From assembly GCA_937861125.1 (NCBI GenBank), contig CALMAY010000037.1, positions 4,941-68,940 of the forward strand: a stretch of DNA of 64,000 nt, given 5' to 3'. Under the pieces are notes generated by a model. It saw only the letters and a list, made by a program, of their open reading frames with translations. It ran no database searches and was not told the origin of the DNA. This document shows, in pieces, positions 6,337-50,002 of the stretch (position 1 is the stretch's first letter; every line of letters starts with the position of its first letter). The position numbers and the translations under genes were made by a program. The DNA is from an uncultured bacterium. Its GTDB lineage: Bacteria > Patescibacteriota > Patescibacteriia > Magasanikbacterales > UBA922.

Positions 6337-6940
6337 ATGTAGAATAAATTGGAATATGTAACTCTTCTAATACGTGTGCGTAATTTTTTGTTGGATTTAA
6401 TTTTGTAATTACTTCTACATCTGGATTCATCTTTTTTACCAACACATTTTCACGTCCATTATCATTGATAAAAAATGTTTTTTCTTTTTCCATTCTTTCT
6501 CGCACGTAGACATCTTTACCCCCAGGAATATACACTTCTTGATGTACATGCACATTCACACCACTTCCCTGAACTTTAGATCTTTGAAAATTTGCATTTC
6601 CCGCTGTGAGCAATATTACTTTATGACCACATTCTTTTAGCGAAGCAATAAACTCAATAGCACCTGCAAAAACGTATTTATTCGTAAAGAGTCCGTTTAA
6701 TTCTTTTAAAACTATTTTCTGATCCACATCTTGACCTAGAGATCGCACAGCGGCAATATGCCGCTCAAATGTATAATCAAAATGTAACAATACATCTGTT
6801 GCCACCGCTCTTTCTTTTGCTTCATACGCGATATCAAGCGGTACACCATGTGTATGAAAAATATCACAAATATCTTTTACAAAATTTTCTGTATTGTACA
6901 GCGTCATGTCAAAATCAATGTAGATCATAACGTTTCCCAA
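6302..6940 (-). CDS. HAD-superfamily hydrolase/phosphomutase-like protein
   Basis: HAD motif I is IYIDFDMTLY (DxDxT), motif II is ILLTAGN, and motif IV is FFINDNGRE. The start may be 6928, which would remove the overlap with the upstream gene. Confidence 0.75.
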   Translation of the reverse strand: MGNVMIYIDFDMTLYNTENFVKDICDIFHTHGVPLDIAYEAKERAVATDVLLHFDYTFERHIAAVRSLGQDVDQKIVLKELNGLFTNKYVFAGAIEFIASLKECGHKVILLTAGNANFQRSKVQGSGVNVHVHQEVYIPGGKDVYVRERMEKEKTFFINDNGRENVLVKKMNPDVEVITKLNPTKNYAHVLEELHIPIYSTFDEIYAYVITH

Positions 6941-7659
6941 AGTGTATCAAAAATACCTTTTTGCGTTTCACTAATACCAATATTTTCAATCATCACACCG
7001 ACCGCTTCTTGTTTTGCATTGAGTGAAATATAGGCGGTCTTACCAGGATAAATAATGATATAGGTCGGTGTAGTGGATGACGCTTTCATGTATTTTCGCT
7101 CATCGAGCCCACGCAACTCCCCACCTTCACCAATCGCAATCGCTCGTACTGCGATCCCCTTACCAATACGCGCATCACTAAAGGTCGGAAAATCTTTGTA
7201 TAATTGTTCACGCAGTCCATCAACAGAATAGACCCGATACATTAATTCTCCACTCACCTCACACGTATCCAGCACATCTGTTAAAATCCGCATAATCGTA
7301 TCAGGAGTAAAGTATCGCGCCACTGGCCGATTACCCCCAGCATTGTACACTGCCAACAACTCACTCATCGAGCGATCAATCTCTTTTTGAGCACTCATTA
7401 GCCCCTCTTGTTCTTTTTCGATCAATTGTTTCAGTTTTTCCGGATGTTCGACGACAAAATGCTGTTTACTGGCCTTTTTATAAAAAGAAACCAGCTCCCG
7501 ATCCTGCAGCCACTTGAGGGCGTCATACGTACTCCCGCGGTTGAGATCACAAAATTCCGCGAGAACGCGCACAGAACTAGGACCGAGCTGAAGCAAAGCC
7601 AGATAGACATCCGCAGATTTGTCAGGAAAACCTATTTTTTTGAGTAGTGAAATATCCAT
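6925..7659 (-). CDS. TrmB-family transcriptional regulator
   Basis: N-terminal winged HTH: LKKIGFPDKSADVYLALLQLGPSSVRVLAEFCDLNRGSTYDALKWLQDRELV. 244 aa. Confidence 0.8.
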   Translation of the reverse strand: MDISLLKKIGFPDKSADVYLALLQLGPSSVRVLAEFCDLNRGSTYDALKWLQDRELVSFYKKASKQHFVVEHPEKLKQLIEKEQEGLMSAQKEIDRSMSELLAVYNAGGNRPVARYFTPDTIMRILTDVLDTCEVSGELMYRVYSVDGLREQLYKDFPTFSDARIGKGIAVRAIAIGEGGELRGLDERKYMKASSTTPTYIIIYPGKTAYISLNAKQEAVGVMIENIGISETQKGIFDTLWETL

Positions 7660-7667
7660 ATATACGT

Positions 7668-7696
7668 AGTGTACCTGTGGATAAAAAAACTGTCAA
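7668..7696 (-). promoter_or_regulatory. sigma70-type promoter of the trmB-like/HAD/glmU/glmS operon (near-leaderless)
   Basis: The minus strand reads TTGACA-N17-TACACT. The -10 box ends 9 nt before the ATG at 7659. The -35 box lies in the left arm of a perfect 10-bp hairpin (AAAAACTGTC/GACAGTTTTT, 7685-7715). Confidence 0.55.
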
Positions 7697-7800
7697 CTTT
7701 TGGTCGACAGTTTTTGACAACAGTACAGGTAAACACCTCTCGCCCACCACAGTGGGAGAGGGTAGGGTGAGAATTACACAGATTTATACACTTTTGAGCA

Positions 7801-7831
7801 TTGACATCTCTCTCTCTCTCTTTGCTATACT
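7801..7831 (+). promoter_or_regulatory. promoter upstream of the RNase P RNA, with a (TC)7 tract in the spacer
   Basis: TTGACA (7801-7806), a 19-nt spacer made of (TC)7TTTGC, then TATACT (7826-7831). The block AGCATTGACA-(CT)n-TTTG recurs at 16078-16106. Confidence 0.55.
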
Positions 7832-7837
7832 AAGCCG

Positions 7838-8240
7838 TTCCTCAATCACCCAGCAATCCAGCTGGAGAGGGGCGTAAGGCCACAATGGCTAGTAGATGGG
7901 AAAAAAAATGGATGACAAGTCCGAAGACTAGGACCTGTATGTGGTCCAAATACCAAAATGCGGACGATGACCGACGTCCCAGTTGTCCGAGACCACAAAT
8001 TCCCGCGGGGACCGAGTATGTAGAAATGCGAAGGTCTCCAACAAATGTCAGGTTCTTCTGCAGCGACGAGTGCTGTGCTGAGTACACGAAAGTGGCTCTA
8101 AAGCGACACGCGTATCGAATGCTCCCAGGCGAGGAGTAACCCTTTGGCAGAAGGGTAAGGAGGGATTTCTCTGCACCTGCCTTACGCAGAGAAGTCCGAC
8201 TAAAGAGAGAAATAGTTTTTATCTTTTTAATTGGAACAAA
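7838..8240 (+). ncRNA. rnpB: probable RNase P RNA (bacterial type); ends uncertain
   Basis: Has a CR-I-like GAUGACAAGUCCGAAG (7910-7925), a CR-IV-like ACAAAUUCCCGCGGGGACCGAG, and a CR-V-like GCAGAGAAGUCCGACUAAA (8186-8204). A 9-bp long-range P2 pairing links GCGUAAGGC (7872-7880) to GCCUUACGC (8179-8187) in the expected order: P2-5', P3, P4-5' ... P2-3', J2/4, P4-3'. It sits between a promoter and a terminator. The ORFs called here (7842..8246 minus, 7885..8139 plus) are taken to be spurious. Confidence 0.6.
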
Positions 8241-8242
8241 AA

Positions 8243-8264
8243 ACACCTAAACAGGTGTTTTTTG
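8243..8264. terminator. bidirectional intrinsic terminator (rnpB on the plus strand, fba on the minus strand)
   Basis: ACACCT-AAAC-AGGTGT hairpin flanked by an A-run on the left and a T-run on the right. Confidence 0.7.
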
Positions 8265-8280
8265 TTTTACCTCACCATGT

Positions 8281-9273
8281 CTATTTCTTAGCACATGCTT
8301 CACTATTTCTCCTCGCCTGCTCCAAAAATGCACTCTGTGCAGCAGGTACATTTTCACTCTTCCCGCCCCACGCTTTGAGTACAGCAGTCTGGAGCGCTCG
8401 TCCGTATGAAAATGAAAGTTTCCACATATGTTCTTCACGTAGACGGTTTATCTCACGCAAGGCATCCACTGCATCAGTATCCGAAAGTCCACCTGAAAGA
8501 AACATCACACCAGGTACCTCTAGTGGCGTCGTCTCACCCAGCACATCCAACGTCTCTTTTGCTGACACGACTGGATCAAATACTTCACCAGACTCTTTTC
8601 CTGGAACCACAAAATTTGGTTTGAGAATAATTCCCTTGAGATCAACGCCGATTCTCTCCAACTCTTCAAATAATGTATACTGTACGCTCAGTGTCACCTC
8701 TTTGCATGTTTGCAATGAGTGTGCCCCATCCATGAGCACCTCAGGCTCCACAATCGGCACCATACCCGCCTCCTGTACCAACTTCGCATACTGTGCGAGT
8801 CGTACCATATTTTCGCGGATACACTCGTCGGTTGGAATACCTTCACCAATAGTCACCACCGCACGCCATTTGGTAAATGTAGCACCTAGACGAGCGTACT
8901 CTACGAGACGCTCAGCGAGACCGTCCAATCCTTTGGTCACCACCTCAGTACTGCTATCACGAAATAGTTCTGTTCCAAGATCCACTTTGATACCAGGTAA
9001 CACACCGATACGTTTCAACACGTCAACAAACAAAACACCATCATGTGTACTCTGTCGGATCGTTTCATCGTATAGAATCACACCACTGACATGCTGTTCA
9101 AAACCAGGTGTCGTAAACAAGAGCTCACGATACGCACGGCGATTATCTTCGGTATTTTCTACACCAATTCCATCAAACCTTTTTTGAATTGTTCCTGTAC
9201 TCTCGTCAGCTGCGAGAAGTCCTTTATTATCTGCGACCATTTGTCGGGCAATAGTGTAAAGATTAGTATTCAT
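8281..9273 (-). CDS. fba: class I fructose-bisphosphate aldolase
   Basis: LLAADESTGTIQKRFDGIGVENTEDNRRAYRELLFTTPG is the class I FBA signature. 330 aa. Confidence 0.93.
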   Translation of the reverse strand: MNTNLYTIARQMVADNKGLLAADESTGTIQKRFDGIGVENTEDNRRAYRELLFTTPGFEQHVSGVILYDETIRQSTHDGVLFVDVLKRIGVLPGIKVDLGTELFRDSSTEVVTKGLDGLAERLVEYARLGATFTKWRAVVTIGEGIPTDECIRENMVRLAQYAKLVQEAGMVPIVEPEVLMDGAHSLQTCKEVTLSVQYTLFEELERIGVDLKGIILKPNFVVPGKESGEVFDPVVSAKETLDVLGETTPLEVPGVMFLSGGLSDTDAVDALREINRLREEHMWKLSFSYGRALQTAVLKAWGGKSENVPAAQSAFLEQARRNSEACAKK

Positions 9274-10763: not shown

Positions 10764-10835
10764 ACAAAAAAAGAAAAAAATAATCTATGCAAGAATATAC
10801 CACAGTACATCTTCTAAATAAAGAGAGAAAGTGTG

Positions 10836-10900
10836 GATAAATAGACAAATAAATATTGATGTATGACACACAAATACATATATATGTGTCACACATCAAT
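10836..10900 (-). terminator. probable terminator of the 23S-5S operon
   Basis: 16-bp stem (ATTGATGTATGACACA 10855-10870 with TGTGTCACACATCAAT 10885-10900, one mismatch), followed on the minus strand by ATTTATTTGTCTATTTAT. Confidence 0.5.
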
Positions 10901-10933: not shown

Positions 10934-11041
10934 TCTGGGCGCTGACCTACTCTTGCCTTGCGACTACCATTGGCGCTGACAGGCTTAACTGCTGTGTTCG
11001 AGATGGGAACAGGTGGACCCCTATCGCAAAAAGCACCCAGA
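10934..11041 (-). rRNA. rrf: 5S rRNA
   Basis: The reverse complement reads UCUGGGUGCU...CCACCUGUUCCCAUCUCGAACACAGCAGUUAAGCC...GGUAGUCGCAAGGCAAGAGUAGGUCAGCGCCCAGA. Helix I is a 10-bp terminal pairing. Flanking sequences extend the stem. Confidence 0.93.
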
Positions 11042-11140
11042 TTCTATGTCCTTTTGAGACGTAGAAATGTGATGAAATGAATACGTATTTAAGGAAGTGT
11101 TTTTCGTTTCTTTCAGTGGTACATTGGAAAAGCACAACTT

Positions 11141-14168
<3,028 letters not shown>

Positions 14169-14638: not shown

Positions 14639-14668
14639 GAAACTATCTGTGGATAACATGTGAGATGT

Positions 14669-14812: not shown

Positions 14813-15283
14813 ATGATAAAAATTACCCTCATCACCCTCGGATCGCTCAAAGAAACGTACTGGAAAGAAGCGGAAAAAGAGTATCTCAAACGCCTGAATT
14901 TATATGTCAAATTTCAACATATAGAACTCAAAGAAGAACGTTTTTCTGATTTACATGAACGAGAAACAGTTCGTATTACTGAAGCACAAAAAATACTCAA
15001 AGTGCTCCCTAATGATTGTTATTTGATTGTACTCGACGAACGTGGCAAAGAGATGGATTCACCTGCGTTTTCTAAGCTATTATTTCATACTATTCCACAA
15101 GGTACACATATTGTGTTTGTCATCGGCGGACCACTTGGATTTAGTGAGGAAATAAAAAAGAAAGCACGGTTACTGCTTTCTTTTTCTCAGTTCACATTTC
15201 CGCACCAAATGATACGCACTATTTTACTCGAACAGATATATCGTGCTGGGACGATTGCACATGAAAAGCAGTACCACTACTAG
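14813..15283 (+). CDS. rlmH: 23S rRNA (pseudouridine1915-N3)-methyltransferase RlmH
   Basis: 156-aa SPOUT protein. The start MIKITLITLGSLKETYWKEAEKEYLKRL, then FVIGGPLGFSEE and the C-terminal FPHQMIRTILLEQIYRA, fit RlmH. Confidence 0.9.
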   Translation: MIKITLITLGSLKETYWKEAEKEYLKRLNLYVKFQHIELKEERFSDLHERETVRITEAQKILKVLPNDCYLIVLDERGKEMDSPAFSKLLFHTIPQGTHIVFVIGGPLGFSEEIKKKARLLLSFSQFTFPHQMIRTILLEQIYRAGTIAHEKQYHY

Positions 15284-15303
15284 TATTACTGCGTATCAAT
15301 ACC

Positions 15304-16023
15304 TTACATATGTGTCAAGTATTTCTTCCTCTTACCCTGAGACATTTTCTCAATCGCATAGCGCAACATTGTCCGTGGCATTTGTTTTGCATATGCATCT
15401 AAAAAATCTTGCAATATTGTTTCATCCTTTTTCCCCATTTCACGTAGCATCCATCCACATGCTTTGTGAATCAAGTCGTGTTTATCAGATAGCAACTGAG
15501 TTGCAATTCTTATCGTTGGTTCATACACGCCCTGACGAATAAAATAGTGTGTAGAGATAATAGAAATTCGTCGCTCCCAAAGATTGTCTGATTGTGCGAG
15601 TGATAACAACACCTTTTTCCATTCACTCTTTTTTTGACCAAAGAGATAGGCACCAACGATATAACTCGCACTACTATCAACCAGATCCCAATTGTTTATT
15701 CGACGAGCGTTTTTGAGGTACCAATCATATATTTTTTTCTGCCTCATTTCATCACCTTTTTGGTATTGATGCACTACAATCAAAAGCGCCGTCAATCGAC
15801 ACTCATGCACTGGATGACGAATCAATTTGTCTATATCTAAAAGAGACAAATCAAAGAACTTTTTTGCAACTATTCTCTGCTGTGGAACCGTAATACCAAA
15901 GAATTGATCGCCTTCCCCATACTGACCTTTGGCAGTCTTGAAAAACCGCTGATATACCACGGCTTTTTGTTTGTCTTGTCGTTTTTTTAATGCGTGGATA
16001 ACTTCGAGATAGGTAACTTTCAT
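15304..16023 (-). CDS. DNA alkylation repair enzyme (AlkD-like HEAT-repeat glycosylase family)
   Basis: Motifs YQRFFKTAKGQYGEGDQFFGI, NNWDLVD, LWERRISI, KACGWMLREMGK and RTMLRYAIEKM fit the DNA_alkylation family. I chose the start at MKVTYLEV (16023). Confidence 0.8.
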   Translation of the reverse strand: MKVTYLEVIHALKKRQDKQKAVVYQRFFKTAKGQYGEGDQFFGITVPQQRIVAKKFFDLSLLDIDKLIRHPVHECRLTALLIVVHQYQKGDEMRQKKIYDWYLKNARRINNWDLVDSSASYIVGAYLFGQKKSEWKKVLLSLAQSDNLWERRISIISTHYFIRQGVYEPTIRIATQLLSDKHDLIHKACGWMLREMGKKDETILQDFLDAYAKQMPRTMLRYAIEKMSQGKRKKYLTHM

Positions 16024-16081
16024 ATACCAATTAGTATACCAAAATACTGTCAACTGAGGTAATTTTATCCACTTTTTAGCA

Positions 16082-16134
16082 TTGACAACTCTCTCTCTCT
16101 ATTTGTTAGTGTGGTTTCCGTCACACGGTGTGAC
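16082..16134 (+). promoter_or_regulatory. promoter block duplicated from rnpB, plus a 15-bp palindromic operator
   Basis: TTGACA (16082-16087), a 19-nt spacer containing (CT)6, then TAGTGT (16107-16112). A perfect palindrome GTCACACGGTGTGAC follows at 16120-16134. Confidence 0.5.
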
Positions 16135-16156
16135 GCTCAAACCAAGAGGATACACA

Positions 16157-17029
16157 ATGAACGGTCCAAACACAATCGAAGAAACACTGGGAATGATGGA
16201 AGATGAGAGGAAGCAGGAGCAGGCTGACCGTACGGCGGCCTACGTCGCCAACATCTTCGCCAGCCACAAATTGAGTAGGGTGTTGGCACGCAACATTGTT
16301 CACAAAAACGCCACCGTGCCATCGACCCAAGGTGACGTAGAACTCAACATCGAACTCACATACGTCGGCCCCTCACAGCACACGTTGACATACTTTGAGT
16401 TCAAAGACGAGGCTGACCGTGGATTTCATTTCCACCTTCATCGACATGGATCCGAATGGTGTGTTCGGTACTTTGTGTCTATGTTGGTGTGCTGTCACTG
16501 GTCAGGACATCGCAGCAAGACGACCCGGGAGTTCCAGGGTCATTTGGCGAACATCAACAAGAAACTGACGACCCCGAGACACACGCATCCCCACCGAGCG
16601 ACCAGGACACCTGCATCCACGCCTGCGCGGGTCGCAGCTTCAGCAACGCCCAAGGTCGACATAGCACCCCTCATCCGTGAGCGGGAAGAAGTGACTCGAC
16701 TGATCACGGACCTGCGAACACAGCTCAATCCTGTGCAGGAGCAGCTGAACTTGATCTCGAGTCGTCGAACTGCAAATGCGCGGCGGCTGCAGTGGATCAA
16801 AGCGAAAGAGGCTGAGTTGGACGCAATGCCAGTGCATGTACGACTTTATTACCCACCGGCCATACGTCTACAAACGGAGGTCGAGAGCGCTCGAGCCAGG
16901 ATCAAGCACGTCGACGATGCTATGGAAATGCAGCTGCGGACAAAGGTGGACCAACTCAGTCTGCAACTGCGTCAGCACGAAGCAGCGTTCGCCGATCTCG
17001 ATCGACGAATCAAGGAGGCGCAGCGATAG
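16157..17029 (+). CDS. GC-rich orphan protein with a C-terminal coiled-coil-like region
   Basis: The ATG at 16157 sits 7 nt after AAGAGGA. 290 aa, starting MNGPNTIEETLGMMEDERKQEQ..., with a Pro/Thr/Ala/Arg linker (TPRHTHPHRATRTPASTPARVAASATPKV) and then heptad-like helical sequence. Sampled lines are about 55-62 % G+C. No family recognised. The ORF-track start at 16082 is the TTG of the -35 box. Confidence 0.6.
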   Translation: MNGPNTIEETLGMMEDERKQEQADRTAAYVANIFASHKLSRVLARNIVHKNATVPSTQGDVELNIELTYVGPSQHTLTYFEFKDEADRGFHFHLHRHGSEWCVRYFVSMLVCCHWSGHRSKTTREFQGHLANINKKLTTPRHTHPHRATRTPASTPARVAASATPKVDIAPLIREREEVTRLITDLRTQLNPVQEQLNLISSRRTANARRLQWIKAKEAELDAMPVHVRLYYPPAIRLQTEVESARARIKHVDDAMEMQLRTKVDQLSLQLRQHEAAFADLDRRIKEAQR

Positions 17030-17054
17030 GAACATCGCACCTGTCGCTACTGAC

Positions 17055-17080
17055 GACCGTCCCGGCACCCCGGGACGGTC
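17055..17080 (+). terminator. GC-rich hairpin terminator of the orphan gene
   Basis: GACCGTCCCGG-CACC-CCGGGACGGTC (perfect 11 bp), followed by AACTATTTTAT. Confidence 0.6.
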
Positions 17081-17158
17081 AACTATTTTATACACCAAAA
17101 ACACTGGTAAAAATATTGTATTAGGTATACTATATTTGTCGATAGCACACCGTACGAT

Positions 17159-18583
17159 ATGGACTTTTCTGAACTTAGAGAGAGTGTATTAGACAAAACA
17201 CCCGGACTCAAACACGCACTCAACCGATATGGTGACATGTCACTTTTGACATATTTCAATACCTTTTCTCACATCTCTTTCCCAGTATCAGAAACCAAAA
17301 AAGATGAAATTACAAGCACAGTCTACGACTATATCGCACGCACGATCGACCCAATTGTCGCCAATCGTGTTGCATCAGAGTTTCACACATCATACTACGT
17401 CTCGACTGCTGACCATCACCATCCACAGACACATCCCTACTCACTCAGCAGCTCCCTCGTTCAGTCTCACGTTGCTACCAAGTCGGGACGAAACACTGTA
17501 TGTATTTTTTCCTGCTCAGGCATATCGATGAACAACAATTCATCACCACGCGGACCACTGTTTCATACTGACACATTGGACGAACAACGACTTCCGCTTT
17601 TTAGTCTAGGACACAAACATCATCCAGTCTATGGGCTACCAGCATATACATCGCAGCAGCTCAAAAAAACGCAACAACTTTTAGCTGAAAACAAACATGT
17701 TACAGATACACAAAAAAAGATTCTTGTACCACTTCTCCAACATATATACGGTACCAGTACAGCTCAATCTCTACACTACTACTCTGAACAACTCACACAT
17801 ACCAATTATCACCTATGGAAACTACTGCCAGAACAGTCCCACATCGACCTCGCTATTATCCCTCAAGAAGATATAGTAAACACACTCTTGATCAAATACC
17901 ATTTGGGAATGAACAGCACTATTGACAAACTCTTACACGAACAAGCATGTTTGGAACGTTTTGAACTTTGTTTTGATGGAATTGATGGCGCATTTTCTCT
18001 GAATGAACGTACAGGCACGTTTTTGTTTTGGGCGATTGTCGACGGAGAACGCAAGGCGCTCTGGCACAACAATGGAACACTGCAAACAGAAGACGCCTCA
18101 TATACCATTACACTCACACCAGAATCAATCACACACGCACTCCAAAATAAAATACTGATGCCGAGCATGGCATTGACGTACATTGTCATTTCGTTCTACT
18201 ATGGAGTTACCTGTGGCGGTGGTTTTTTGCAAGGAAGTTACCTTTCAAAAATGAAATATGCCTACCTTAAATGGCTTGACGCAATAAACGGAGCAACTGA
18301 AGAAAGAAACCAAGTAGAGATGCTTGAGACAGACCTTGTGATGGCAGATTTTTCTTTTTTGACACTCACACACAATGATACGATTGTTCCCGCCACCACC
18401 TTTGATCTGCTCCTCTACCCACAAACAAATCCAAACCACTCTCTGTCTTCATATATAGATAGCTGGACACTCAAGGAAGCAGTGGACCAACTTATGCCGA
18501 TGTTTTACAAAATTCTTTTTCATACAGACAGTAGTATTTCCTCACCCAAAACACCACACACACCATTTCTCTATGTCAAATAA
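17159..18583 (+). CDS. hypothetical protein (474 aa), no recognised family
   Basis: Long ORF with host-like composition. It overlaps the downstream ATP-grasp gene by 11 nt. Confidence 0.7.
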   Translation: MDFSELRESVLDKTPGLKHALNRYGDMSLLTYFNTFSHISFPVSETKKDEITSTVYDYIARTIDPIVANRVASEFHTSYYVSTADHHHPQTHPYSLSSSLVQSHVATKSGRNTVCIFSCSGISMNNNSSPRGPLFHTDTLDEQRLPLFSLGHKHHPVYGLPAYTSQQLKKTQQLLAENKHVTDTQKKILVPLLQHIYGTSTAQSLHYYSEQLTHTNYHLWKLLPEQSHIDLAIIPQEDIVNTLLIKYHLGMNSTIDKLLHEQACLERFELCFDGIDGAFSLNERTGTFLFWAIVDGERKALWHNNGTLQTEDASYTITLTPESITHALQNKILMPSMALTYIVISFYYGVTCGGGFLQGSYLSKMKYAYLKWLDAINGATEERNQVEMLETDLVMADFSFLTLTHNDTIVPATTFDLLLYPQTNPNHSLSSYIDSWTLKEAVDQLMPMFYKILFHTDSSISSPKTPHTPFLYVK

Positions 18584-19775
18584 CACGACGACACAAAAAA
18601 AATGTCTTGCCTGTGGCAACAACCCGACTCATCATACCATGACATGGTTCAACCAAAGTTCAACCATCTTTATGATGGCATTTAGTCGCAGTACTGCATC
18701 GCTCTTTTTGTACCCAATTGTCTCAAAAACAATTGATTGGCTCTTTCGCTACTGGATGCTTTTGTTACTCAAATGTGGCATTGTCACAATCAATACTGAC
18801 ATTGATAAAGCACCAAGCTATCGTGGCAAAGTACTGTGGGAAGAAGCGCAAGCACGTGGTATACCAATGCACAACTTTTTTACATTCAACAAAGCCACGG
18901 ATATTTACGAAGCCACGGTAAAAGGAAAACATATCTTTTTTACTGGCCTCCCACGTCCAGCAGCAACCAAGACAGGATCAGAGTGGTGGCTCGATGACAA
19001 ATGGATCCTCAAGCAGAAACTCATGGCAGCCAACCTTCCCGTCGCACGCGGAGGTGTCTTTACTACATTTGCTCCCATGCGAGAATTATTCAACCAGCTC
19101 GAAAAACCAGTGATCATCAAACCACGCCTCGGATCACGTGGTCGACATACAACCACATATATCACCACAGAAGACCAACTTCGTGACGCGTTTACCAGTG
19201 CCAAACAACTCTGCCACTGGGTAATCATGGAGGGACATCTCATCGGCAGTGTCTATCGTGCCACCATGGTGGACAATAAACTCGCAGGCGTGCTCAGTGG
19301 TGACCCACCACGTGTGACAGGAGATGGCACGCACACTATTGCAGAACTCATTGAACAAAAAAATGCAACCAGACATCCTGGAATCAAAGATGTCGTCCCG
19401 ACAAATGCACACCACACATTTTTGTCTCGTTTAGGACTCACACTTCAGAGCGTACTACCCACAGGAAAAACCATTGACCTACTAGAAAAAATCGGTGTCT
19501 CATACGGTGGCAACAGTGGCGAGGTAACGCACCTCACACATCCAGAAATTAAACGAATATTAGAAGAAGTGGCCAAAGTGGTTGATGACCCCATCGTCGG
19601 TTTTGATTTTATCATCGAACACATCGACCAATCCCCACATACCCAAAAATGGGGTGTCATTGAATGTAACGGCGTTCCATTTATTAATTTGCATCACGAC
19701 CCAATTGAAGGACCATCAAACAACGTGGCAGCAAAAGTATGGGATTATGTGGAGGCGCATGTCGATGAACTGTGA
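18573..19775 (+). CDS. ATP-grasp ligase, cyanophycin-synthetase (CphA) N+G-domain-like, with an N-terminal hydrophobic region
   Basis: VIIKPRLGSRGRHTTTYITTEDQLRDAF...GSVYRATMVDNKLAGVLSGDPPRVTGDGTHTIAELIEQKN parallels the CphA ATP-grasp core. There is no Mur-ligase-like domain (400 aa). Residues about 25-70 are hydrophobic. Confidence 0.7.
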   Translation: MSNNTTTQKKCLACGNNPTHHTMTWFNQSSTIFMMAFSRSTASLFLYPIVSKTIDWLFRYWMLLLLKCGIVTINTDIDKAPSYRGKVLWEEAQARGIPMHNFFTFNKATDIYEATVKGKHIFFTGLPRPAATKTGSEWWLDDKWILKQKLMAANLPVARGGVFTTFAPMRELFNQLEKPVIIKPRLGSRGRHTTTYITTEDQLRDAFTSAKQLCHWVIMEGHLIGSVYRATMVDNKLAGVLSGDPPRVTGDGTHTIAELIEQKNATRHPGIKDVVPTNAHHTFLSRLGLTLQSVLPTGKTIDLLEKIGVSYGGNSGEVTHLTHPEIKRILEEVAKVVDDPIVGFDFIIEHIDQSPHTQKWGVIECNGVPFINLHHDPIEGPSNNVAAKVWDYVEAHVDEL

Positions 19776-47685: not shown

Positions 47686-47756
47686 CACCCTCCAGTTCCC
47701 CCTCCCACTCATATCAATATGTTTGATACGAATGGCAGTGGCTGGAAGGTGAGTTC
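47686..47756. repeat. R1a: 71-bp three-tier hairpin module (3' flank of cassette A)
   Basis: 70/71 identical to 48488-48558. Outer stem CACC(C/T)TCCAG/CTGGAAGGTG, middle stem CCACT/AGTGG, inner stem TATCAA/TTGATA. On the minus strand this copy is followed by GGTTTTTTG. Confidence 0.9.
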
Positions 47757-47783
47757 TCAAACCACCCCTCAATACAAACGGAT

Positions 47784-48365
47784 TCAATCCCGTGGAGGAA
47801 CACCAGACATTAACCCATCACGGATCTTGTCGATTTCTGCAATAATGTGTGCAGCTCCAACAGGATCAATCCGAGAAAATGCCGATGTCCACTCTTCAGC
47901 GCGATTAATGGTCATTGGAATGTACCCTGTACCAACGCCGCTCAGTGCAGATTTGTGTGTGCCAAGCTCATGGGCAGCTTGCTCCAGAGTCCACCCCCGG
48001 ATAGTTTTCCAACGATGTATGAGTTGTACTACTCGTTGCTGACGTGGCAACAGCCATACTTTATCCTCTTCGTGGACAGAATTCTTGCGCATCACACCCC
48101 TTCGAACAGCTGCGGGTCCAGACACAGGCGCAACAGGTACCGGCACAGCAACCTCGGGGGCAGTCGGTGCCGGTGACGAAATCACATGTTGGATAATCGC
48201 CGGTGTAGGATTTGCACCCTGCAAAGAAAACCCACCGTACTCAACCAAGAACCCAGCGTCTTTCAGGTCACCCAACATCTTACTGAGCACAGATGTCGCT
48301 GCCTCCAGATCTTCGATGCGAACCACGACAACCACCTGAACCTTCTGGAGCGTTTTATGCGCCAT
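47784..48365 (-). CDS. GC-rich orphan protein A with a C-terminal XRE-like HTH
   Basis: 193 aa, with RBS AAGAGGT 7 nt upstream. A Pro/Ala linker (PAPTAPEVAVPVPVAPVSGPAAV) is followed by GWTLEQAAHELGTHKSALSGV (HTH-like). Sampled lines are 60-65 % G+C. Confidence 0.65.
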   Translation of the reverse strand: MAHKTLQKVQVVVVVRIEDLEAATSVLSKMLGDLKDAGFLVEYGGFSLQGANPTPAIIQHVISSPAPTAPEVAVPVPVAPVSGPAAVRRGVMRKNSVHEEDKVWLLPRQQRVVQLIHRWKTIRGWTLEQAAHELGTHKSALSGVGTGYIPMTINRAEEWTSAFSRIDPVGAAHIIAEIDKIRDGLMSGVPPRD

Positions 48366-48387
48366 GACTCTACCTCTTGTGTTTGAA

Positions 48388-48460
48388 ACCAGGGACCATC
48401 CCCAGCCTTCATACTAGTCACAAAATATATGAATAGTATGAAAGTGAGGATGGTGTTTGT
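48388..48460. repeat. R2a: 73-bp 5' module (promoter/operator-like) of cassette A
   Basis: 71/73 identical to 48937-49009. Contains the inverted repeat CATACTA-N17-TAGTATG, and on the minus strand a TAGTAT box and a CTGGGGA-TGG-TCCCTGG hairpin. Confidence 0.9.
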
Positions 48461-48487
48461 TTTGATTGGAATGACCATACGAACTTT

Positions 48488-48558
48488 CACCTTCCAGTTC
48501 CCCCTCCCACTCATATCAATATGTTTGATACGAATGGCAGTGGCTGGAAGGTGAGTTC
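48488..48558. repeat. R1b: 71-bp hairpin module (3' flank of cassette B)
   Basis: See R1a. Confidence 0.9.
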
Positions 48559-48583
48559 CGATTCCACTCCGATGCACGAAGGA

Positions 48584-48916
48584 TTACCCGACACCAAGAA
48601 GGATAGCGTTCGAATGCTTTGCAGCACGCGCCTGCTTGCCGTCATCTTGTCGTACAATCCATCTGTCTTTTTCGAGACAGTAGGCACTCATGACGATGCC
48701 ATTGTCTACGAAGTACAGACGTATAACTGCCCTACCAAACTGCATTTCTCCTCCATGCTCCTTGGTGAGCATGTCAAACGTCGTGCGGTTTGCTGGGGCA
48801 ATCCCCAAGCGAGTGAAGGCCTGTGAAGGCCTTTCCTCAGCTTCAATGACACGCGAATGAAGGCGAACCGTAACGCCACTACTCAGCGTGAACACATCTT
48901 GTTTTTTTCTGCTCAT
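48584..48916 (-). CDS. GC-rich orphan protein B
   Basis: 110 aa from the ATG at 48916 (MSRKKQDVFTL...), which directly follows R2b. The ORF-track call to 49114 reads through the repeat. About 55 % G+C in the sampled line. No family recognised. Confidence 0.55.
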   Translation of the reverse strand: MSRKKQDVFTLSSGVTVRLHSRVIEAEERPSQAFTRLGIAPANRTTFDMLTKEHGGEMQFGRAVIRLYFVDNGIVMSAYCLEKDRWIVRQDDGKQARAAKHSNAILLGVG

Positions 48917-48936
48917 TTTTTTCCTTTGAAAGAATA

Positions 48937-49009
48937 ACCAGGGACCATCCCCAGCCTTCATACTAGTCACAAAATATATGAATAGTATGAAAGTGGAGAT
49001 GGTGTTTGT
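48937..49009. repeat. R2b: 73-bp 5' module of cassette B
   Basis: See R2a. Confidence 0.9.
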
Positions 49010-49178
49010 ATATGAATTGTAATGTGCTTTCCTCTTTTGTGAGGATGAGATACTATATCGTACTGATACATTTTTATCAATAATCCTTATATATACAAAT
49101 TTTATAAATACCATAAATATGCATAATTTTAGCTTTGTATAGCAAAATATTTATACACACAAATAATATAAAATATTT

Positions 49179-49216: not shown

Positions 49217-50002
49217 ATGTTCCCCATACAAACCATTTTGAGCTATTTTTCCTTTACCCATCAGGAAGCTGAGATCTACCTCGCATCCCTCACGCTCGGA
49301 CGAGCGAGCCTGACAGAACTAGCCAAAAAAGTCGACAAACAACGCTCTGCTGTCTATTTTCATATCAAAAACCTTGTAAAAAAGGGGTTTCTTTTTGAGC
49401 ACAAGCAAGGCAATAAGCTCCTCTTTAGCCCAATATCACCAAGCGAACTCTCAAATGAATTCAGTCGACGAGTAGAGACATTTCAAACACACGTACCAAA
49501 CCTCGAAGCACTCAAGCAGATCGAGACAGACACACCCGCCATCACAGTACTCGAATCAAAAACCGGATACCTCAAAATTTACGAAGAAATTGCAGCGCTC
49601 CCGCCCAAAAGTATGTTTCGTGTCCTCGAAGGACGCACAGCACTCGCACATGAGCTCACCCTCTTTAGCAAAGAACAATGGGGTACTTTTTTTTCTACTA
49701 TTGTTGACAAAAAAATTGAAACAAAAGGATTGTTTACTCACGCATGTAGACGTATTCCACAAATGACATTCGACAAGGAAACACACCAAAAACTTACCAA
49801 ACGTATTTGGCACATGCGATTTATAGATGAAACAGTATTCCCGTTTGAAGACCTGATTATGATTTATGGCAATACTATTGCATTTATGTTTCCGCAATCA
49901 CGCCTAACAGTTAAAATAGTACACCGCGATATCGCACGACTTATGACACTCTTATTTGATACTGTCTATCTTACTGGTGTGCCAGATAACACACCGTGGT
50001 AA
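49217..50002 (+). CDS. TrmB-family transcriptional regulator
   Basis: FTHQEAEIYLASLTLGRASLTELAKKVDKQRSAVYFHIKNLVKKGFL is a TrmB-type wHTH. 261 aa. Confidence 0.75.
   Translation: MFPIQTILSYFSFTHQEAEIYLASLTLGRASLTELAKKVDKQRSAVYFHIKNLVKKGFLFEHKQGNKLLFSPISPSELSNEFSRRVETFQTHVPNLEALKQIETDTPAITVLESKTGYLKIYEEIAALPPKSMFRVLEGRTALAHELTLFSKEQWGTFFSTIVDKKIETKGLFTHACRRIPQMTFDKETHQKLTKRIWHMRFIDETVFPFEDLIMIYGNTIAFMFPQSRLTVKIVHRDIARLMTLLFDTVYLTGVPDNTPW

Follow-up and report, generated by a model that had tools for sequence, protein, structure and literature searches.

A GC-rich orphan gene behind a reused promoter block in a Magasanikbacteria-related bacterium: a probable laterally acquired, moron-like cassette

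In the stretch of 64 kb analysed here (hereafter the window), an open reading frame (ORF) for 290 amino acids (aa) with an unusually high G+C content lies between an alkD-like gene and a gene for a protein of 474 aa. As far as its sequence tells, the host is a bacterium of the Candidate Phyla Radiation (CPR) related to Magasanikbacteria and Falkowbacteria; relatives of the neighbouring 474-aa protein carry the labels Candidatus Magasanikbacteria or Falkowbacteria. We propose, with a probability of roughly 0.7, that the ORF and the signals around it form a laterally acquired, self-contained single-gene cassette, similar to the ‘morons’ of phages, with a recruited native promoter. Horizontal gain is the best reading because the gene is a compositional outlier, its site is empty in a close relative, its signals are unlike those of the host, and its homolog is similar to it. 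The parts of the cassette are, in order:

16041-16055, plus strand: AAATACTGTCAACT, 93% identical over 15 nt to 7684-7698, which lies upstream of the other copy of the promoter block
16046-16072, plus strand: left copy of a gapped direct repeat, ACTGTCAACT[GAGGTA]ATTTTATCCAC, including part of the AAATACTGTCAACT segment
16064-16108, plus strand: promoter block, consisting of TTATCCAC, then TTGACA (16082-16087), then (CT)6 (16089-16100)
16119-16135, plus strand: palindrome of 8+1+8, CGTCACAC-G-GTGTGACG, on the presumed transcription start or just behind it
16144-16150, plus strand: Shine-Dalgarno (SD) sequence AAGAGGA, 7 nt before the ATG
16157-17029, plus strand: GC-rich orphan gene of 290 aa with an ATG start, between the alkD-like and 474-aa genes
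17055-17092, plus strand: intrinsic-terminator-like hairpin GACCGTCCCGG-CACC-CCGGGACGGTC, then AACTATTTTATA
17075-17095, plus strand: right copy of the gapped direct repeat, ACGGTCAACTATTTTATACAC

The ORF has a G+C content of 55.1% versus 43.2% for the window, which makes it the 873-nt stretch of highest G+C in the 64 kb. Single 60-nt lines of it reach 0.62-0.67, in line with the original prediction, which had called the composition foreign-looking on account of lines of about 62%. Its G+C at the three codon positions (GC1, GC2 and GC3) is 0.61, 0.42 and 0.62, the pattern of a coding frame, and a GC3 of about 0.61-0.62 lies 3.8 standard deviations above the mean of 52 ORFs (0.38±0.06). No other protein-coding region of the window is as strong an outlier in composition. 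Furthermore, its synonymous codons give one of the two poorest fits to the host, and positions 16251-17250 form the second most deviant 1-kb window in tetranucleotide usage (z 3.5), exceeded only by a 23S rRNA window, so that the suspected outlier status is found in tetranucleotides and codons alike. Because the same protein written in host codon usage would have 48% G+C, some 5 of the 12 excess points are due to amino acid composition and some 7 to codon choice. In its other frames the gene carries seven overlapping shadow ORFs, each of 60 aa or more, where several had been announced. Is the ORF itself, then, an artefact of high G+C? This is ruled out, and the ORF is a real gene: decisive is a full-length homolog, P0050, next to which stand the codon-position pattern and an open frame of 290 codons, where 2000 shuffles gave 114±27 and never more than 256.

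The closest relative available, a JGI contig denoted L003, is the sole source of an empty site. Its orthologs of the alkD-like and 474-aa proteins share 74% and 77% aa identity with those of the window, and synteny is retained on both sides; the two genes are separated there by a spacer of about 80 bp that does not contain the ORF. The boundaries of the extra DNA follow from two host features:

16033-16041, minus strand: core promoter of the alkD-like gene, TGGTATACT, an extended -10 that ends 9 nt before the ATG at 16023; same layout in L003
17118-17158, plus strand: host spacer and promoter of the 474-aa gene, with TATACT at 17126-17131; conserved with the empty site of L003

Homology to the L003 spacer restarts at window position 17118, GTATTAGGTATACTATAT (p = 0.008), as does the BLAST match. 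Since the -10 of the alkD-like gene is kept on the left and homology resumes at 17118 on the right, the extra DNA spans at most 16044-17117, or about 1.07 kb. The idea that the left flank, too, is homologous to the L003 spacer was rejected (p = 0.74). Both divergent host promoters are intact, one on either side of the insert. A misassembly is excluded, as independent assemblies from ENA, Logan and NCBI agree over the locus at 100% identity, and the exact 290-aa protein is present on 14 contigs, with no frameshifted variants seen. The source samples have the accessions ERZ724538 and ERZ724544 (ENA) and SRR5676450. The two assemblies compared at the DNA level, L001 and L002, are 100% identical to the window, leaving no population variation for a ratio of nonsynonymous to synonymous substitution rates (dN/dS).

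When 1.84 billion representative proteins were scanned in full with HMMER, one homolog came up, P0050, a protein of 295 aa that aligns over aa 25-290 with 30% identity (E 7e-24). Together with a word-indexed search and a profile search of 5.8 billion clusters, this yields a family of two members, the 290-aa protein (P0001) and P0050; the database search advised in the original prediction thus returns one homolog and an otherwise empty family. Both proteins have the motifs VGPSQ, RGF-F--H--G--W and W-G--SK in their N-terminal domain, and they share a layout of domain, Thr/Pro-rich linker and helical C-terminus. The surroundings of P0050 are also comparable. Its contig, of 1.4 kb, is AT-rich, and its gene is SD-led (GGAG), has 47.9% G+C versus 37% in the flank and a GC3 of 46% versus 22% in the next gene, and is followed on its 3’ side by a terminator with a G+C stem; the gene next to it has a promoter layout of the leaderless type. 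P0050 is therefore a GC island in an AT-rich contig, which adds to the composition, codons, tetranucleotides and absence from L003 in bearing out the foreign origin that had been claimed. No homologs of the family were found in phage records, plasmid records or viral contigs. Scanning GTDB genomes and JGI metagenomes with the neighbouring protein and with the promoter block returned nothing, and the lineage appears to be missing from these scanned collections. A 290-aa gene downstream of a 474-aa homolog in contig L006 was considered as a relative and is unrelated, with only its length in common.

The proposed acquisition also involves the block upstream of the gene. Positions 16064-16108 match window 7783-7827 with 88.9% identity over 45 nt (E 1e-12), and L003 1214-1249 with 91.7% over 36 nt, the latter as an off-diagonal BLAST match of L003 against the window; the extent of the block in L003 is given as 1214-1260. 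Within the window the block pattern is found twice versus zero expected. The other two copies and their cargo are as follows:

Window 7783-8266, plus strand: sister cassette, with the block at 7783-7827, TTGACA at 7801-7806, a 19-nt spacer with (CT)7, and TATACT at 7826-7831
Window 7885-8139, plus strand: SD-led, Cys-rich ORF of 84 aa, with a terminator at 8235-8266
L003 1214-1260: block copy, with TTGACA at 1231-1236, 17 nt including (CT)6, and TATACT at 1254-1259
L003 1305-1691: cargo ORF of 128 aa, with a GC3 of 59% and a faint receiver-domain match, then a long terminator

The cargo proteins of 290, 84 and 128 aa show no mutual similarity, and one lineage-specific block thus precedes three unrelated, GC3-elevated small genes in the window and L003. 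The window and L003 both keep the block in the spacer between a TrmB-like gene and an aldolase gene, and its 3’ cargo there is wholly different; this spacer (window 7783-8266, L003 1214-1810) looks like a slot for swapping cargo. The block is conserved at 89-92%, versus 76% in the flanking orthologous coding DNA, and was not found in the public collections scanned, viral contigs included. The ‘borrowed promoter block’ of the original prediction is real because the same block in L003 would drive an unrelated gene: it is paralogous to window 7783-7827 and L003 1214-1260, each ahead of a gene of its own. By consensus reasoning only, the block would act as a promoter, with TTGACA and TATACT in two copies and TAGTGT in the third, the one at 16 kb. 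In this last copy the string TTGACA-(CT)6-TAGTGT is present as had been described, with TAGTGT at 16107-16112 and a spacer of 19 nt, both read off the sequence. A consensus scan makes no promoter call here because TAGTGT matches TATAAT at 3 of 6 positions, next to a perfect TTGACA.

The spacer between -35 and -10 is largely taken up by the (CT)6-7 tract in all three copies (window 7807-7821 and 16089-16100, L003 1237-1249), with spacer lengths of 19, 19 and 17 nt, respectively. Phase-variable promoters are known to carry a repeat tract between -35 and -10, for example the (TA)n of hif in Haemophilus influenzae. Similarly, a dinucleotide repeat fills the spacer here and the copies differ in spacer length (17 or 19 nt), and such a (CT)n promoter could be slippage-prone and phase-variable. 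Unlike hif, however, the block has only 6-7 repeat units and shows no length variation between the compared assemblies, for which reason slippage is only putative.

As for the other signals of the gene, these too depart from what is common in the host. An SD sequence is present at 5 of 51 window genes, and three of these five are compositional outliers, namely this ORF and two others at 47.8-48.9 kb, ORFs A and B; among the non-outlier genes of the window the count is 2 of 48. A -10 hexamer located 7-12 nt before the ATG, which is a leaderless signature, occurs at 10 of the 51 genes, and -10 elements resembling TATA[AC]T, as well as extended ones (TGnTATACT), suggest that leaderless mRNAs are widespread in this host. 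On the 3’ side, the hairpin at 17055-17080 has a perfect 11-bp stem with 9 G-C pairs and a 4-nt loop, followed by AACTATTTTA, and a folding energy of -26 kcal/mol (z -5.0). Its tail AACUAUUUUAU passes a terminator scan, with an interrupted U run, and 17055-17092 thus offers the G+C-rich stem-loop plus U tract of a rho-independent terminator. The roughly eight long host hairpins are built as A-run, stem and T-run with 2-5 G-C pairs, making 17055-17080 the sole long stem of its composition in the window; the contrast with host terminators had been noted correctly. The same hairpin was sought in viral contigs and not found.

Taken together, the following course of events is proposed. The cassette would have inserted where two core promoters point away from each other, that of the alkD-like gene on one side and that of the 474-aa/ATP-grasp-like gene pair on the other. 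It would be chimeric, with a native AT-rich promoter block at its 5’ end and a foreign ORF and terminator, the foreign remainder consisting of a leader of about 37 nt that starts with a small hairpin or palindrome, the SD sequence, the GC3-rich ORF and the G+C-rich terminator. Since the neighbours are divergent, read-through cannot supply transcription of the ORF; instead, the recruited promoter would provide it, possibly along with the regulation of its paralog. The SD sequence would allow translation to be initiated in a mostly SD-less genome, and the strong terminator would insulate the downstream operon, whose promoter (from 17118) is intact.

What kind of protein does the cassette encode? 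Residues 165-290 are confidently predicted to form a helical hairpin of about 125 residues (pLDDT, the predicted local distance difference test, of ~90; AlphaFold, 2-sequence alignment) with heptad-like hydrophobic a/d positions, in agreement with the coiled-coil C-terminus that had been predicted. A disordered linker rich in Pro, Thr, Ala and Arg precedes it at about aa 139-165, where the original prediction had described a Pro/Ala/Thr-rich linker. The N-terminal domain (about aa 25-135) is predicted to be alpha/beta, with a consistent secondary structure of roughly helices, 4-5 strands and then a helix. No signal peptide or membrane segment is apparent in the sequence, and the product is predicted to be soluble. 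Searches of Pfam, PHROGs, NCBIfam and PADLOC returned only sub-threshold coiled-coil matches (SMC, Rad50, LmuB and tropomyosin), and sequence searches of the PDB, both with the single sequence and with profiles, returned nothing. Coiled-coil ATPases of the SMC/Rad50/LmuB type have ATP-binding cassette (ABC)-type ATPase head domains flanking the coiled coil; this identity was rejected for the 290-aa protein, of which only the coiled-coil part is matched, at 10-22 bits versus cut-offs of 300-700, and which lacks a head domain. Foldseek matches to p85 niSH2 and Rad50 in the PDB, with template modelling (TM) scores of ~0.2, were likewise rejected as noise reflecting architecture only. The modelled architecture suggests a dimerising scaffold or adaptor. 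An accessory function, be it in defence or in the interaction with a host or competitor, is our guess and the least secure step of the interpretation.

We must however take into account several points that weigh against a laterally acquired cassette as proposed, or against parts of it. The empty site rests on one close relative, and no donor or vector for the gene was found. Nor is a recombinase or transposase on record nearby. A gapped direct repeat of the 5’ end of the block (16046-16072 and 17075-17095) brackets the cassette and is a candidate target-site duplication, and its significance is marginal (p ~0.04). The -10 is degenerate (TAGTGT, where the paralogs have TATACT), its spacer is 19 nt long and no promoter is called by the scan, and expression of the gene is therefore putative. 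The N-terminal domain reaches a pLDDT of 30-45 in two AlphaFold attempts, one with the 2-sequence alignment and one with the domain alone. Lastly, any functional assignment is a guess because all family matches are coiled-coil noise far below the cut-offs.

How does the locus compare with known systems? Phage morons carry their own promoter or operator and terminator, deviate in G+C and are variably present between two conserved genes (the Hendrix/Juhala concept, PMC2920897). The cassette resembles these in being a single extra gene between adjacent genes that is absent from the relative L003, with signals of its own (a block with a perfect -35, and a hairpin terminator of z -5) and a different G+C content (55.1% versus 43.2%; GC3 +3.8 standard deviations). 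In contrast to a moron, its flanks are chromosomal housekeeping genes (the rRNA operon, rlmH and the alkD-like gene) rather than phage genes, and no PHROG hits or matches to phage records were found around the locus. Putative mobile promoters have been defined as conserved upstream segments of 50-100 nt with at least 80% identity ahead of non-homologous genes (Matus-Garcia et al. 2012, PMC3488235). In line with this concept of promoter propagation, the block recurs ahead of genes without mutual homology, in one genome as well as in its relative, at sufficient identity; its contiguous match of 45 nt (88.9%; another 15 nt match separately at 93%) falls 5 nt short of that length. It differs from these in being tied to a compositionally foreign gene and in a (CT)n spacer whose length varies (17 or 19 nt).

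Laterally acquired ORFans have an atypical composition and codon usage, have almost no homologs and are found in the spacers between conserved genes. All of this applies to the 290-aa gene, with its atypical composition and codon usage, near-absent homologs and position between conserved genes. What differs is the host, an SD-poor CPR bacterium with leaderless-style genes, and the direction of the bias: foreign DNA is more often AT-richer than its host, whereas this gene and its homolog are both GC-richer than theirs. The type of event, lateral acquisition of an ORFan combined with promoter reuse, is as such already known on both counts.

Two kinds of mobile element were considered and rejected. 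Integron cassettes carry at their 3’ end an attC site (imperfect inverted repeats of ~57-141 nt with conserved core sites), and their ORFs are promoterless and expressed from a common Pc next to intI. Here, the 3’ end has just an 11-bp perfect stem with a 4-nt loop and a T-rich tail, without attC; the gene has a promoter block of its own, and no integrase domain is on record within ±10 kb. Insertion sequences (IS) have terminal inverted repeats and a transposase, and miniature inverted-repeat transposable elements (MITEs) have terminal inverted repeats alone; the cassette has neither. An inverted repeat at 16032-16043/17121-17132 was rejected as terminal because its arms are the host promoters, and the empty site has these as well.

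So what exactly could be the role of the palindrome? The original prediction gave it as GTCACACGGTGTGAC at 16120-16134 and took it for an operator; that sequence is present, and its true extent is 8+1+8 at 16119-16135. With TAGTGT as the -10, the transcription start would fall on the palindrome, at about 16119-16121, and a dedicated repressor bound there would block initiation. The perfect dyad between a -10-like hexamer and the SD sequence, at about +1, agrees with this, and with some 2-4 palindromes of this length per 64 kb, a placement within the 130-bp spacer is a priori unlikely. However, the palindrome is unique in the window and the related loci fetched, the search for further sites that had been proposed thus ending without a hit; the cassette contains no regulator gene, and no cognate regulator is evident. 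Moreover, palindromes with arms of at least 7 bp occur in the window at chance level (9 versus 8.9±2.9 expected), and the RNA fold of this one is no better than that of shuffles (z about -0.9 to -1.3). At a similar position of their leaders, the sister cassettes have different hairpins (L003 1272-1290, ATTCTAC-ATTGC-GTAGAAT; window 7850-7865), whose folds likewise do not clearly exceed shuffles. These differing hairpins would fit an RNA stem-loop at the 5’ end that does not depend on its sequence. Stem-loops at the 5’ terminus are known to stabilise bacterial mRNAs. An operator is possible, yet we hold it to be rather doubtful; a stem-loop in the 5’ leader would be at least as likely, and so would chance.

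The state of the promoter also allows for a silent or decaying relic, with an ORF that is still intact but not expressed because its recruited promoter lost the -10. In its favour are the 3 of 6 matches of TAGTGT, where both paralogs have TATACT, the 19-nt spacer and the missing promoter call. This spacer length, however, is shared with the paralog at 7.8 kb, the ORF is fully open with an ideally spaced SD sequence, L001 and L002 are identical at the DNA level, and the protein is found on 14 contigs without frameshifts. We consider a relic unlikely.

A further alternative is that the block, C[TG]GTCAACT ... TTAT[CA]CAC ... TTGACA-(CT)n, serves as promoter and recombination site at once, in an uncharacterised cassette-exchange system that swaps the cargo behind it. 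Three instances in two genomes with three unrelated cargoes, an orthologous slot that differs between the window and L003, and a block conserved at 89-92% versus 76% in the flanking orthologous genes would all follow from this, as would the gapped repeat that brackets the cassette at 16 kb and a second pair of block-flanked cassettes at 47.7-49.0 kb. The window has three C[TG]GTCAACT sites, each at a cassette border, and the gapped direct repeat is a possible recombination footprint. Still, there are three instances only, the flanking repeat is marginal and its right-hand copy is absent downstream of the other two cargoes, no recombinase is nearby, and the block is missing from every public collection scanned. 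Since ordinary illegitimate recombination together with promoter duplication explains the data, an exchange system of this kind seems improbable to us. The same low odds apply to its most far-reaching form, in which the portable block (up to and including TATACT) would mark CPR ‘slots’ that capture and exchange SD-led, GC-rich orphans, whose expression would be tuned by the (CT)n spacer and adjacent TrmB-like regulators, with the 290-aa protein as cargo from an unsampled gene pool. If true, minimal genomes would receive accessory genes through a cassette system that either does without an integrase or has so far escaped recognition.

Least plausible of all is that the gene is ancestral, vertically inherited and deleted in the lineage of L003, with a composition set by constraints of the protein itself: although there is just one empty-site relative, some 5 G+C points do stem from an Arg/Ala-rich amino acid composition, and the GC3 of P0050, about 24 points above its host, could hint at a bias intrinsic to the family, the gene has no homolog in other sequenced relatives whereas the 474-aa family has 48 members, its GC3, SD sequence, leader and terminator are all atypical for the host, and the L003 spacer has no remnant of the promoter block. 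We thus infer that the event was a gain.

The cassettes at 47.7-49.0 kb, mentioned above, contain the following ORFs, of which ORF A had been put forward as a parallel to the 290-aa gene:

47784-48365, minus strand: ORF A, 193 aa, 52% G+C, SD-led
48584-48916, minus strand: ORF B, an SD-led orphan of 110 aa

They are arranged as two tandem cassettes (47686-49009, minus strand) with unrelated orphans, each with a 74-nt upstream block (48387-48460 and 48936-49009, 97% identity) and an 83-nt, hairpin-like downstream block (47686-47768 and 48488-48570, 93%), and they are divergent from a gene for a TrmB-like regulator at 49217-50002; another TrmB-like protein is encoded at 6925-7659. The resemblance between the ribosome-binding site of the 290-aa gene and that at 48365 does exist, with TCAAAC(A)CAAGAGG matching at 13 of 14 positions, and is short (p = 0.08 versus shuffles). 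The suggested common source is not supported: an origin shared with either ORF A or ORF B was rejected, as the proteins are unrelated and only this SD-containing 14-mer is shared by the upstream regions, and the Pro-rich linkers, though present in the proteins of both the 290-aa gene and ORF A, are low-complexity and no evidence for it. What the 290-aa gene and ORF A have in common is that both are SD-led compositional outliers inside repeated expression blocks.

The wider neighbourhood of the insert is made up of these genes:

10934-14161, minus strand: 5S and 23S rRNA
14813-15283, plus strand: rlmH
15304-16023, minus strand: alkD-like gene, as called on matching contigs (Pfam DNA_alkylation, E 3.5e-63)
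17159-18583, plus strand: 474-aa gene, without a Pfam domain and with 48 homologs
After the 474-aa gene: ATP-grasp-like gene (weak match)

Further neighbours near the locus are Smr, PNPase and S15. The 23S match covers 3016 nt versus the 2925 positions of the model and may hold a small insertion, and no 16S gene adjoins the 5S and 23S rRNA genes. The 474-aa gene and the next gene, of about 395-400 aa with the weak ATP-grasp match, form a conserved pair (window 17159-19775, L006 and L008), the upstream neighbours of which vary across Magasanikbacteria/Falkowbacteria-like contigs; as a two-gene module, the pair is uncharacterised and specific to the lineage. Compared to window 15283-15304, L003 has about 410 bp extra at 8813-9214, between its rlmH and alkD-like genes, with a 133-aa ORF that is absent from the window, which amounts to another small-gene indel between conserved neighbours. 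The DnaA-box-like motif TTAT[CA]CAC occurs 9 times in the window versus 4.7±1.9 expected and is mostly intergenic, including the edges of the promoter-block cassettes; sites are at 7676-7684, 7784-7791, 10833-10840, 14649-14656, 16065-16072, 17088-17095 and 49151-49158. An oriC or DnaA-box meaning of TTATCCAC was rejected, as the excess of copies is slight and the GC skew does not turn within the window.

The genomes of CPR bacteria are tiny and streamlined, and little is known about how they gain new genes and express them. The locus described here is a clean, dated example, with an empty site in a relative and a foreign gene joined to a promoter that was already in use, and the acquired gene keeps its SD-led leader in a genome largely without SD sequences. 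It further establishes a protein family of two members, with a conserved N-terminal domain. The kind of event is ordinary, and its interest, which we consider moderate, lies in the CPR host, in how extremely rare the family is and in a hint that cargo is swapped behind a conserved block. If more genomes of this lineage were to carry the block in front of other orphans, this would point to a mechanism for the turnover of accessory genes in CPR bacteria.

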